Shown in pieces: positions 45,647-62,200 of a stretch of DNA of 64,000 bases. The translations under genes were made by a program, and so were the position numbers. Positions within the stretch are counted from its first letter, which is position 1. Every line of letters starts with the position of its first letter. The notes beneath the pieces were generated by a model. The model saw nothing but the letters and a program-made list of their open reading frames with translations, was not told where the DNA came from and ran no database searches. Origin of the DNA: Peptococcia bacterium (GTDB lineage Bacteria; Bacillota; Peptococcia; DRI-13; DTU073); contig JBMNJH010000012.1 of assembly GCA_050951565.1 (NCBI GenBank), forward strand, positions 63,141-127,140, written 5' to 3'.

Positions 45647-48600
45647 ATGATTAAGAATAAAAGTCTTGTTTTCCTCTTAATTCTTTCGCTTTTATTAATA
45701 TCGTTTGGGATCTATTTTGCCATCCATTCATTTAACAGCACCAAAAGTGTTTTTATGCAGGATGGCTATGTTTTGGAGTGCCAAGATGATCTGGCTGGCG
45801 CGGAAGGAAAAAGCATTCAGTACCATTTTCGAGGGGGAACGACTTACCGGGCCAGGTTCCCTCAAAAAATTGTTTTTAATGACACCCAAAACCAGCGGAT
45901 TATCACTGCTGAGCATGGTTTCCTTCATTATGCCGACGGTTCGTTTGGGGCCTTCAAAAACGGGGTTGTATTGAACCTTTCCGCTTTAAATGCTGACTTA
46001 ATTAATTATTACAATGTTTCTCCTGATTCCATCATGCAAAACAACGGGAGTAGTTATTCCCTTGACCATATGGGGACACCGATCAACTTTAAACAGTTCC
46101 TGTGGAAATTAAACCAGGACAAATATCTGCTGGCTGCCGATACGATCAAGCTGCATTTTTTAGAGGATGATGTCCGGGAATTTAAAGACTATCTCGAAGT
46201 AAGCTACATTGATGAAAATGTGGTGCAACTGGCCAATAACGAGGCTGTTCTCCAGACCATTGCCACGGATTGTTTTGTGGAACTGAACGACGGAGTGACC
46301 ATCAATTTTAGCGAAAAGACGATTAAGCAACACGATGTTACGAAATTAACCCTGGCCCAGATGGTTGTGGATGCCGAAGAAAATATTGAGGTGACCCCTT
46401 TAAAAATGAAGGAGGTCGCTGCAATTAAGCTGCCCAAAATTACCACCGTCGACGGTGAAGACGGGGAAGAAGGGGAAACAGGAGAGCCCGGCGAACCCGG
46501 CGAACCGGGCGAGGTTGGCGAAACCGGTGAAACCGGCGAAACCGGAGAACAGGGCCAAACCGGGAGTAAAGGAAGGGGCGGCAGTAAGGGGAAAGACGGC
46601 GCTGCCGGTGAGACCGTCGGCGTCGGAGGAGGAGATGGAGACTCCGTTGATCAGGTTAAATTACCTGTTTTTGAATTGTCCGAATGGAAGGTAACCGCTT
46701 CCAGCGCCAGCGGCGTTGTCTTTATTAAGGACGACGATAATTTGCTGGTGGGAGACTCCGTTAACCTGAAGCTGGTGGAAACCGGCACCAACAAAGTGGT
46801 GTACGGTCCCGAGCCGTATTCGGGTCTGATTTTCAATTTCCATTTGGACGGGCTTAATTCCGGTACCGAGTACCGTTTGGTCATCAGTGCGGATTATGCC
46901 GTAAATAACAGGGAATATACCAGGGATTTCATTAATAAGGTGTTTGTGGCGGATACCCTCGGCTTATCTGTGGAAAAGGAATACGCCGCCGAGACGGAAC
47001 TTGCTTTTGTGGTGATGAAGCAAGCTTCTTCCACTGTGAGTATCGCCAGTTTACAGCTTTATAACGAAGATGGGACTTCGCACAGCGTGGAAAATGTTAA
47101 TTTCGCCGGCGATCGGCAAACGGTCCTATTTAGAAACCTGACGCCCAATACCAGGTATCTGGTTCAGCTTACCGACGTGAAAAGCAGTGACGGTATTGAA
47201 ATGGCTACTTATGGGCAAAGGCAGGAATACAGCACTTTAAAGACGCCGCCCACGATTGGCGATCCCAAAGTAATCGTCAACAAAAAGAACGGTTCCTTTG
47301 AGATGCAGGTTGGCGCTGTGACGGACCTCCACCATGGCATCACCAAATTCCGTTATGAGATCTATGCTGCGCCGGTTGTTACCGGTGTCACACCGGTGAA
47401 AACGCTGAATTCCGCCACTAAGGGGAGCGTGGCCGCTTTTGTGGACAACTTGCTCTTGCGGCGGAACGAGGATTATCAGGTGAAAGTGGTTGCCGAGTTC
47501 TTTGATAATGAAAAGACGGTAGAGTTCGAAAGCAACCTGTCGGATACATTCCGCATGGAAGGGGTCAGCTTCCCGACGGTGAGATTCGAGGCCGAAGAAA
47601 TCACTTTCGAGCGGGTCCGGGGAATTATCTACATTGACGCCCAGTCGGCAGAACTGGTGGTTAATTCAAACAAACCGCTGACCATCATGTACGAAAACTC
47701 CCTCAACGTAGCTAAAACCCTGCCGCCGATTACCGATCTGGCCCAGTTCGCGGAGACCGCTACTACTTATGCCATCCCCTTTGTGGTCAATAACTTACGA
47801 CAGAACGATACATATGTGGTCTCCCTGCATGGTTGCGTGGACCTGCTTGACGGGAATCCGGAAGAACAAGTGGTCATCGGAAGCTTTATCTTCGACACCC
47901 CGTCCAGCAATCCCTTACAAGCCGTCTTTATTGAGAATTCCACTGACGGCAGTTCGGCGTTCGATGTTGATTTCCAGTTACAGAGCCCGCCCATGATCAA
48001 CAGCGAACTGGAAGCCAACACCTTGTCCCATATGACCCTGAAGTTGTATTCCGGGGTTACGACCGAAGAAAGAAACCTGGTTGCCACCGTGCCTTACCAT
48101 GACACTAATCCGGAACCGTACGAGAGCGTCCTGAGAGAAACCTTCTATGACCAGATGGCCAAGATTACGGAAACAACCTTCGGGCTGCGTCCCGAACAGT
48201 TGGAAAACCCTGTTTATACCATTCAGGTGACCGGGGCATCTGACTATACGGATTATCAAAACGAAATCACGATTATTAACAATATAATTACGGTTAACAG
48301 ATCCGAATCTGCGCCGCCGTTACCGCCGGTGAATGACGCTTTTGAAGTGATCACGATTATTAACGGCAATGCCGAACAATTTGGCGTGGAAAAAGTTGAT
48401 GGATTGAGAGATGACACGATCATTGGGTATGCCGTGAAGGCGAAGTTTGACAGTGATCTGGCCAATAACTTTACCTATACCATGTATTCACCGGCCGAAT
48501 ACCATCAATACAACAGTGATCCCGACATTACCGCAGGCGCGCAGCAGGTTGGATCTGCCTATACCTTGCCGGTTGTCGGCGGCAAGATTCCGGAACTGGT

Positions 48601-59227: not shown

Positions 59228-62200
59228 TTGAAGAAGATTGTTGCTTTAGCAGTGGTTATTCTGGCGGTTTTAGTTTTTGCAAAATATTACCAGCTCCAAA
59301 CAGTGGGGATTTTGGAGAGCAATACATATGCGGTTACGGACAACCAGATCACGCAGAGTTTGTTCTCCGACCAGGTTCCCCCCGAAAAGGCGGTGCTGGA
59401 ACCAACGGTGGCGGAGTCCCTGACTCCGCTCTACGAGTTGGGCGGCAATCTTTTTCTCGGGGAGCGGAAAAATAAGCTGAATAACGCGTATCCCCTCTTT
59501 GTCAATGACGCCGTGGCCCTCATGAACGTCAACAACAGCGCAAAGCTCATCACCGAAGATTTTGAAAGAAAGAACACCTATTACGGCCTGTACGTCAGTG
59601 ACGGCCTCTCCTTTAATGCGGATAAACAGCGGGCGGATGCTGAGACCTTTATCCTGCTGGAGTTGGCCAATAAGCTGTATATCAATGCCCGGCCCATGGA
59701 AGTACATACCATTTGCGGCGATGTCCTGATCCCGATGAACGGGGTTGTCAATTTTCAGGAAGATGCTATTCGTTATTACACTTTGGAGAAAGGGAAGTTC
59801 CACTACAAGGAAATCCCGAGAGTGGACGAGCAGACCTGGGTGCGTTTTGCCGGCAAAAAATACCCCTATTATGACTTTTTAATCGGCCTGGGCAAGCTTA
59901 AAGAACCTTCCGGGCAGGCAAGACCTGCTCTTCAGGAAGAGGAAGCCCCGCCTGAAATCCCGGAGCGGGAGGAGGAAGAAGGAAAAGCGCAGGAGGAGCC
60001 GGTGGAGCCGGCCGAATCTCCGGTGCTGAAGCCGGAAGCGCCTGAAAAAACCAAAGCAAGCTTCCGGAAGCCGCGGCTTTCGATGACCGATTTCCGGGTC
60101 AATTCGATCCAAAGGACCGCGGAGACGACCCTAAGCATCCACGACCCCTCAGGGGTCCTGACCGGTGCGATTCAGGTGATCATCCGGGACGAAAAAGGTA
60201 ATGCGCAAAGTTGGACCTTTACGAACTATGCCGAAGCGCAAAAAGGGATTTTGCAGCCTGTGGCCTTCTTTGATAACCTGGAAAACGGGATGACCTATAC
60301 CGCATACGGGACATATAGCTATATAGACGCCGACGGGCAAAAACAGACGGAGTTCTTTGGCTGGAAGACCTTCCAGGTGGAAGAGCGGCTAATCTATTTC
60401 TTTGATCTGCTGGAGATCAAAGAAGAGCCGGAGCCGGAACCGGAGTTTGTCCCCGTCAAGCCGCAGGTTAGCTGTGAGCCTTTTGTGGCATCGATTTATG
60501 ATTTGCATTCCACGTTGACCATTCACGAACGGGGCAGCCTGGTGACCGGCGGCATCCGTTTTGAGGTCTATCATGATGAGCGCATGTATATGCGCAAAAC
60601 GGTTTCGGCAAGTGGGGAATTAACCCTCGGTCCTTTGCCGCCCGCCACGGAATTTAAAATCATCGGGTACATTACCTACTTAAATGAATACAAAATAAAG
60701 GTGGAGGAAAAGTTTTTCGAACAGACCATTGCCACACTTCCGCTGGATCAGTTGGAGCCCATGTCCTTGTCCTTCCAAAACGGCAAGATCTTTTATGACC
60801 GCATTCAAATTGTGGACTTGTGTTTTGTCGATGACCCTGCGGACAGCAACCGGAAAATCGGCGCCGGTACCATTCCCTATGTGGCGAAAATTGCCGTCCT
60901 GATTGACAATAATACTTACGGCTTAAAGCCGGCCCAAATCAGCGCCATGCAGGAGGGCGGCAAAGTAGAGTATGAAACCCCGGCGGTATTGCGTTCCAAT
61001 CAGAAATACCGGTACAGAATTGTCTGTTTGGACCGGTTTGGTAACGAGTTGCCATTGACGGAGCCGGCGGAAGGGGAGACTCATACCTGTAAAGCGCCGC
61101 CGAAAGCGATTATCCGGTTGACCACCAATGAAGTGGCCAATACGGAGCTTACGGTCGAGATTGAAAACAAGGACCATGTGGAAGCGCAGAATTACCGGAT
61201 TGCCTTGTATGATATCAATGATCATTTAATCCACACGGTCAGAAGGACAGAAGGCGGGGAGGATTCCGAAGCCTCGACCCACCATGACCTGCCGGAGGAC
61301 GGCGGTAAAATCACCTTTACGAATCTGAGTGCCGGTGCGGCCTATACGGCCGTGGTCTATGCCGATTATGACCTGGACAACGGTGAAGGGATACAGGAAA
61401 ACATGGAAATCGGGCGGATTCGTTTTACGACCCTGTCCATTTCCGCGCTGGGTTATGCCATTTTTACAACGGAAGTAACGGAACTGACCGATCAGGAGGC
61501 CACCTTAACCATTTCTCTCGACAAAAACCGGACCAATCCCCAATTGCAGTTTTTACTGGATAAGGTTACGGTGCTCATTACCGGCCCCGATGGTGAGGAA
61601 ATTATGACCGTATCCCTGACGGAAGAGGAACTGGCCCGGTTCGTGGCCGGCGACGGGGAACCTTTCCAAATCGAACTAGAGAACCTGCTGAGTTCCACCG
61701 AATATGGAATTACTATTCTGGCGGAGGTAGAGCAAGGCGGGGAGATCCATGATATTAAAACGTCCAATAGCATCGATGGTTTTAAGACCCTCAAGACCGA
61801 GCCGGAGGTTGTGATCAGTTCCTATTTTTCCATTTCCAATGCCATTGAGCTGTATGACGTGATCATCAACGATCCGGACGGGGCGATTCTGAGCCATGTT
61901 AACCTGCTGGTAACGGACAGTTACGGCCGGGTGGTGGGTTCGCGCATCCTCCAGGCGAATACCCTTTATGAGACGCTCGTTTTCCCGAAACTGATTAAAA
62001 ACGAGATGTATACCTTTACCTTTGTGGCCACCGAGTTTAACAAAGGGTATGACTATACCACTTTTGAGACCCTGTATGAGCTTAAACCGGTTTATCAGAT
62101 TATCAATGAAAACAAGCTGGCCGGTGAAATCGGGCTGCAGAGCCTTGACGAGATTACCGGTGACAATGACCATTACCTGGCGAAACTGCGGGTACAAATC

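Follow-up and report, generated by a model that had tools for sequence, protein, structure and literature searches.

Do the four membrane-anchored surface proteins encoded at this locus carry one and the same domain next to the membrane, and what might such a domain do there? The stretch of DNA analysed here, called the window, comprises 64,000 nucleotides from a Peptococcia bacterium (assembly GCA_050951565.1, contig JBMNJH010000012.1, positions 63,141 to 127,140 of the forward strand). On its plus strand, from position 45647 to the window end, it holds a single tight gene array with the order A-B-c-b258-alpha-gamma-beta-eps-m194-C-D; all features described below lie on this strand and are numbered from the first letter of the window. 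A previous inspection of the letters alone (the sequence-only reading) had proposed that proteins A, B, C and D, starting at 45647, 51127, 58485 and 59228, share a module of about 200 amino acids (aa) behind an N-terminal anchor. All four starts are confirmed by the list of open reading frames (ORFs), and the start of C at 58485 is also the one chosen in a separate JGI gene prediction (P0001, with 100% identity over 242 aa). Protein A (45647-51100, 1817 aa) combines the anchor and the module with a collagen-like stalk and FN3-like repeats, and has Pfam Collagen and fn3 matches. Protein B (51127-52923, 598 aa) contains the anchor, the module, a (GGX)20 stalk, a beta-rich region and an acidic tail, while protein C (58485-59213, 242 aa) is limited to the anchor and the module. 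Protein D (59228-62488, TTG start) has 1086 aa as an ORF and its gene runs on in other frames to the window end. One point absent from the sequence-only reading is that the A, B, C and D genes bracket a F1-like ATPase gene set; since the ATPase genes stand between A/B and C/D, the finding of a shared module has to be read differently. On balance, we favour the view that the modules are paralogous, belong to a conserved surface apparatus and assemble at the stalk base beside the F1-like ATPase.

The juxtamembrane module family

The families were collected by searching with the alpha-like protein of the array and keeping one genome per species, which gave 80 loci whose alpha subunits are 56-87% identical. 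These loci span Peptococcia, Lachnospiraceae (including the cultured Kineothrix alysoides), Oscillospiraceae, Erysipelotrichaceae and uncultured 'Bacilli/Tenericutes/Mollicutes' metagenome-assembled genomes (MAGs). Orthologues were found for A (52, all upstream of B in the related loci) and for B (59), and the module profiles were built from 49-63 orthologues per protein. In the window, the module of A lies at 45728-46450 (aa 28-268, with a homologous core at aa ~55-240; family of 49 sequences), that of B at 51229-51855 (aa 35-243, core aa ~55-215) and that of C at 58602-59210 (aa 40-242).

At the level of single sequences the modules hardly recognise each other. Pairwise BLASTP among the four modules gave no significant match (the best, A-B, had E 0.039 and 26% identity over 53 aa at the hairpin motif described below), and phmmer with each window module against the related loci retrieved only its own orthologous family (52-66 ORFs each). 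Database homologue searches with the modules were shallow (8, 2 and 17 matches), also when C and D were joined in one profile of 41 rows. The comparison of profiles by HHalign, which the sequence-only reading had named as a check, gave for A-B a probability of 92.6% (E 4.6e-7, 160 columns, score 50.7) and for A-C a probability of 93.5% (E 2.2e-7, 170 columns, score 51.8). The B-C comparison is weak (19%, E 1.2e-3, 93 columns, score 27.7) and still above every control. Two kinds of controls were considered: templates whose columns were shuffled in blocks of five, with mean scores of 13.6-16.4 (standard deviation 1.6-3.1, maximum 25), and 24 comparisons with profiles of six further beta-rich stretches from A, B and D, with scores not above 22.0.

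The absence of significant BLASTP matches and the profile-alignment identities of only 12-13% would be compatible with a similarity due to chance or to the composition of beta-rich sequence. We consider this hardly credible: the A-B and A-C scores stand 11-13 standard deviations above the shuffles set against them (means 14.9-16.4, standard deviation 2.8-3.1) and exceed the best real-domain control more than twofold, the alignments are collinear over 160-170 columns, and the HMMER cross-matches are reciprocal. Indeed, when the family hidden Markov models (HMMs) were run against 1382 ORFs, the non-self matches fell nearly all in the other module families at collinear coordinates (the A HMM, for instance, matches B proteins down to an independent E-value, i-E, of 3.5e-5); the two exceptions are short ORFs that resemble partial N-termini of A or B. 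One observation weighs on the other side, namely that the direct B-C alignment follows the path via A for B residues 24-71 and then slips by one hairpin. An internal duplication of the module was unsupported by comparison of N-terminal and C-terminal halves (best 9.9%, in C). Judged from these profiles, there is no reasonable doubt that A, B and C have homologous modules, and this part of the earlier proposal is strongly supported.

The position of D is more delicate. Its juxtamembrane module (59285-59932, aa 20-235) is probably a distant member of the family, and its link runs through C. With plain profiles, HHalign C-D gave 21.6% (E 1.0e-3, 134 columns, score 28.2), which is weak and yet above all 24 real-domain controls and all shuffles. 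Some related loci encode a tandem protein in which a D-like module directly precedes a C-like module (D'-C'), and with the modules of these proteins as sub-profiles the comparison reached 68% for C'-D (E 4.7e-5) and 53% for C-D'. A merged C+A+B profile aligned with D over 130 columns at 79% (E 1.5e-5) without any change of register, with controls not above 22, and the register is identical throughout the four sub-profile and merged comparisons (53-79%). When the DSSP strings of the AlphaFold models were added, C-D rose to 76%, whereas rotated strings gave 2-56%. Along the HHalign C-D alignment, the two DSSP strings coincide at 77% of positions when unshifted (register 0), and no other shift between -12 and +12 reaches this value. 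Finally, the D HMM matches C-type (C') modules at i-E 5e-4.

Several observations speak against membership and would suit another explanation, in which only A, B and C share a domain and D carries an unrelated hairpin-rich beta domain that converged on the same strand periodicity of about 8 residues. HHalign A-D (2.9%) and B-D (2.2%) are at the background of the negative controls, the plain C-D comparison reaches only the value given above, and a shift of 8 residues, i.e. one hairpin, still leaves 63-68% DSSP agreement; because strands recur about every 8 residues, this agreement is only moderately discriminating. In the rearranged 'Tenericutes/Bacilli' clade with the A-B-C-c order, no D was detected within 10-kb flanks. 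The link of D thus stays below conventional certainty. We nevertheless hold convergence to be rather improbable, in view of the C-D score above every control, the constant register of the four comparisons, the aligned motif and tyrosine, the matches of the D HMM to C' modules, and the occurrence of D-like and C-like modules in tandem within one protein. That D is a true distant member of the module family is likely. The claim that all four proteins share the module therefore has strong support in the case of A, B and C; for D, which is linked by way of C only, the support is moderate.

Inside the module, similarity is centred on a short hairpin. The motif lies at 46097-46132 in A (module positions 124-135), at 51520-51555 in B (98-109), at 58914-58949 in C (GFLHDGKDLYIF, 105-116) and at 59648-59686 in D (FILLELANKLYIN), where the string aligned with the other motifs is FILLELANKLYI (module positions 122-133). 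In the profile alignments one tyrosine is aligned in all four motifs (module positions A133, B107, C114 and D132), and in the C and D models the segment forms a strand, a tight turn and a strand. The hairpin element pointed out by the sequence-only reading does occupy the same profile columns in all four proteins, but its written consensus literally fits A only. As seen in these alignments, this element is the conserved heart of the module similarity. A second string noted just after the anchor, (S/N)TYA(I/V), does not hold as a motif across the families: what is kept is the tyrosine alone for B and G-Y-(a/i) for D and A.

The AlphaFold model of C, made from an alignment of 16 database proteins, has a predicted local distance difference test (pLDDT) score of 86 and a predicted template modelling (pTM) score of 0.80, with about 24 short beta strands after a helix at residues 3-41. 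For D, whose alignment was made of N-terminal segments of representative-search matches, the model is a hairpin-rich all-beta structure (pLDDT 95.2, pTM 0.89). The module regions of the four proteins had no Pfam match and only noise far below cut-off in NCBIfam. In the PDB, no sequence relative of the module was found, and no structural neighbour of the C and D models (best Foldseek E 0.17, for D). The module is best explained as an ancient, diverged paralogous all-beta array of about 180-200 aa with some 20 short hairpin strands. At 50% identity, the D-type module alone forms 370 clusters within a set of 1.8 billion representatives; in the best 150 matches it is at or near the N-terminus (starts ~3-111, mostly ~20-60), and the longest D-family proteins among the 150 best matches listed have 3000-6000 aa.

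Anchors, stalks and linkers

The module follows a predicted transmembrane (TM) anchor, located from the hydrophobic window and positive-inside charges at 45662-45727 in A (aa ~6-27) and at 51157-51225 in B (aa ~11-33). Over 47-58 orthologues per family, the uncharged run behind the basic N-terminus has a median length of 18-21 residues; the net charge is +2 to +3.5 on its N-terminal side and 0 to +1 on its C-terminal side, and this charge asymmetry fits an orientation with the N-terminus inside and the C-terminus outside. The proteins show the traits of type II signal anchors (one hydrophobic helix at the N-terminus, about 20 residues long and positively charged on its N-terminal side), and the helix at residues 3-41 of the C model occupies the corresponding part of that protein. 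Hydrophobic run and charge pattern agree in all four families with the basic N-terminus, single TM helix and N-in/C-out topology proposed before. In D the hydrophobic segment is short (15 residues, then VFA|K), and it could be a cleaved signal peptide instead of an anchor.

Behind the module, the four proteins continue in different ways. In A, 18 uninterrupted Gly-X-Y triplets (46454-46615) form a collagen-like stalk, which is recognised by PF01391 (Collagen) with 34.8 bits for a cut-off of 27.2 over aa 270-322 and qualifies as a collagen repeat. In B, the stalk consists of 20 uninterrupted Gly-Gly-X triplets (51856-52035) and has no Pfam Collagen match. D has a Pro/Glu-rich linker (59933-60097, read from the translation) and C ends after its module. 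The linkers announced by the sequence-only reading are thus all found, with 20 GGX triplets counted in B where it had given 18. The C-terminus of B (52700-52920) has a long Ser-rich part followed by a Glu/Pro-rich acidic tail. The D gene appears broken at 62433-63236: the orthologue of locus L033 aligns with 59228-64000 in frames 1, 2, 3 and 1, which identifies the ORFs 62496-62741 and 62752-63258 as displaced pieces of D. The gene may be a pseudogene, or the assembly may contain indels here; where it is intact, orthologues of D have 2000-6000 aa.

The lengths of the A and B stalks are linked to each other. From locus to locus, the Gly-X-Y triplet count of A varies together with the Gly-Gly-X triplet count of B, with r = 0.994 over all 48 loci and with r = 0.988 over the 26 repeat-bearing loci (permutation p <= 1e-5), and r is still 0.94 when the two longest pairs are removed. 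The pairs range from 13/18 to 68/69 (A/B triplets), with 18/20 in the window, 33/33 in L004, 31/31 in L008, 68/69 in L013, 62/61 in L029 and 14/16 in L030. Close relatives may differ strongly and in parallel, as L029 (62/61) and L032 (25/27) do, and in the Bacilli clade the repeats of A and B are missing together. Shared ancestry partly inflates this co-variation. Because the triplet counts co-vary, the A and B stalks may co-assemble; in the simplest reading, chains from both proteins would join in one heteromeric collagen-like stalk directly above the homologous modules; a triple helix in which (GGX)n of B joins A is a proposal that rests on the length co-variation. The description of the four linkers as different stalks accordingly has to be modified, since the A and B stalks are length-matched and look like parts of one stalk. 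The matched lengths lead to a testable prediction, a heteromeric bacterial collagen-like stalk.

The ATPase operon and the proposed assembly

The gene order of the window, A-B-c-b258-alpha-gamma-beta-eps-m194-C-D, is that of nearly every complete locus (in MAGs of Clostridia and Bacilli and in Kineothrix alysoides), and dozens of genomes keep A, B, C and D in synteny with the genes of the F1-like ATPase. In one clade, m194 and C are fused in frame into a protein of 403-417 aa (L003, L008, L009 and L010 and, by length, also L004, L006, L007 and L013), so that the C module would be tethered to the membrane sector in these organisms. The same clade has the additional D'-C' tandem protein, of 451-571 aa, made of a TM segment, a D-like module and directly a C-like module (example coordinates from this clade: L009:13841-15058 and L009:15003-16448). 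In another clade (L065, L071 and L080) the order is A-B-C-c-..., which brings the three clearly homologous modules side by side. The full arrangement in this 'Tenericutes/Bacilli' clade, which also includes L061, L068, L072, L073 and L076-L078, is A-B-C-c-b258-alpha-beta-eps-(m194)-gamma.

The ATPase genes themselves are as follows. The c-like protein (53033-53278, 81 aa) is a small hairpin protein and a clear homologue of F-type c subunits according to a PDB sequence search (best Acetobacterium woodii c subunits, E 4e-12, e.g. 4bem). No Asp or Glu occurs in its helix 2 in any of 76 orthologues, and the window protein has a Met at the position of the Na+-binding Glu of A. woodii; lacking a helix 2 carboxylate, the c ring would be without ion-binding site. 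The listed ORF 52685-53278 runs over the acidic tail of B in a different frame, and its match to c subunits is confined to the final 81 codons, which begin with the Met at 53033; the part upstream of this Met (52685-53032) looks like non-coding read-through of the ORF finder. The next gene, b258 (53290-54066, 258 aa), is conserved in the operon and encodes a single TM and a conserved cytoplasmic part ending in NICEGI..Y.NK.YDYSI. The alpha-like subunit (54057-55388, PF00006, E 3e-73) has 443 aa and is shorter than usual alpha subunits. It is followed by the gamma-like (55385-56176, PF00231, E 1e-22) and beta-like (56173-57528, PF00006) subunits, by an ORF of 113 aa at the conserved epsilon position (57562-57903), with no Pfam or NCBIfam match, and by m194 (57878-58462, 194 aa), a polytopic membrane protein. 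Neither b258 nor m194 has a relative in Pfam, NCBIfam or the PDB. Assignments of m194 as subunit a and of b258 as subunit b or delta were considered and rejected, as they had no sequence support.

The beta-like subunit resembles ordinary F1 beta (E 1e-113) more closely than it does the G1 beta of M. mobile (E 5e-92). The alpha-like subunit falls under every NCBIfam cut-off, with 427 for a cut-off of 554 (NF009884) and 395 for 484 (TIGR00962) among the atpA models, and 381.8 for 600 (MMOB1660) and 304.1 for 520 (MSC_0619) among the mycoplasma models. The N-ATPase alt_F1F0 models are likewise out of reach (alpha 341.8 for 750.5, gamma 25.8 for 282). The alpha-like subunit appears to belong to an uncurated F1-like ATPase lineage, and judged by its subunits the ATPase of the operon is not an ordinary ATP synthase.

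We propose that A, B, C and D are subunits of one conserved surface apparatus encoded with this ATPase, probably a large and so far undescribed machine of gut Bacillota. Outside the membrane and close to the membrane sector of the ATPase, the paralogous modules would be packed against one another. C would be the stalk-less and stator-associated copy, associated with m194, and there may be contact with m194 or the c ring. The packed modules would form a base from which the A/B collagen-like stalk, probably heteromeric, rises through the cell wall, as would the Pro/Glu-rich linker of D with its giant repeat arrays. The assembly of the modules may be coupled to ATP hydrolysis. Synteny, gene fusions and the co-variation of the stalks point indirectly to an assembly or docking role.

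The modules might also be homologous and act independently, each binding an envelope component (lipoteichoic acid, peptidoglycan or lipid) and holding its own stalk upright. The predicted topology, which puts each module at the inner wall zone of the Gram-positive envelope, would suit such a role. This is unlikely in our opinion, as the modules match no known wall-binding or lipid-binding family and as the m194-C fusions, the D'-C' tandem and the matched A/B stalk lengths would be left unexplained.

A different role would be that of an export or recognition handle, with the F1-like ATPase powering secretion or membrane insertion in the manner of FliI. In its favour, an ATPase is encoded together with four extracellular proteins, all of them very large or extended (D-family members attain the 3000-6000 aa mentioned above), and FliI/type III secretion system (T3SS) ATPase families do score against the alpha-like subunit, well under their cut-offs. 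We regard this role as very improbable: the module follows the anchor and is predicted on the outer side, the gamma and c-ring homologues are typical of rotary enzymes and not of export ATPases, and C, which is the module alone, has nothing to export.

A bolder extension of the assembly at the stalk base is an undescribed rotary surface machine of Gram-positive gut bacteria. In it, the F1-like head would turn the ion-free c ring by hydrolysing ATP, the four modules would form an extracellular coupling collar in which C belongs to the stator and A/B, like D, to the driven part, and torque would be passed to giant FN3-rich filaments. We offer this only as a speculation with little probability in its favour. 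If true, torque or conformational work would be carried through the wall to filaments of 2000-6000 aa, with motility, adhesion cycling or substrate handling as possible uses, and the machine could be a relative of the lineage behind mycoplasma gliding and the MIB-MIP ATPases.

For the less specific proposal of modules assembled at the stalk base, the shared module is the obvious candidate interface between the membrane sector of the motor and the surface filaments. Treated as one family, it provides a handle for finding the system in genomes, for complex structure prediction and for the choice of mutagenesis targets, and Kineothrix alysoides is at least one cultured carrier of the operon.

Comparison with known systems

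A limited full-text search of the literature returned no paper on the operon or the module, which does not prove that they are unpublished. The closest systems described are those of mycoplasmas, namely the Type 2 ATPase (G1-ATPase, gliding of M. mobile) and the Type 3 ATPase (F1-like X0, for MIB-MIP antibody cleavage), and these F1-like ATPases have been described as mycoplasma-specific (PMC3369863, PMC12994834, PMC11864180). Their clusters comprise seven genes, with a 12-TM protein and no c subunit (PMC3369863), and for F1-like ATPases devoted to surface tasks the way in which force is transferred across the membrane is reported as unknown (PMC12994834, PMC11864180). The likeness lies in extra sets of F1-like alpha, beta, gamma and epsilon genes that are accompanied by unclassified membrane proteins and tied to surface proteins, not to ion-coupled ATP synthesis (PMC3369863, PMC12994834, PMC11864180), and the hosts of the present operon include Bacilli, 'Tenericutes' and 'Mollicutes' MAGs. 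Unlike the mycoplasma clusters, this operon keeps a c homologue (without carboxylate), has a membrane protein of about 190 aa in place of the 12-TM protein, comprises eleven genes and includes four N-terminally anchored module proteins with collagen-like stalks. We regard the operon as a relative of the mycoplasma surface ATPases that is much more widespread, with carriers in Lachnospiraceae, Oscillospiraceae, Peptococcia, Erysipelotrichaceae and uncultured Bacilli.

With the canonical bacterial F1Fo enzyme the operon shares alpha, beta, gamma and c homologues. It differs by the c subunit without ion-binding Glu/Asp, by the alpha-like subunit under the atpA cut-offs and by the giant surface proteins whose genes flank the set, while a, b and delta were not recognisable in it by Pfam, NCBIfam and PDB comparisons.

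Finally, a globular domain adjoins a Gly-X-Y region in the collagen-like proteins Scl1/Scl2 of Streptococcus and BclA of Bacillus, where it is thought to help trimerisation. In A too, a globular domain directly abuts the Gly-X-Y repeats of a Gram-positive surface protein. In contrast to Scl1/Scl2 and BclA, the globular domain of A and B is an unclassified all-beta module behind an N-terminal TM anchor, and two chains, GXY in A and GGX in B, are matched in length.

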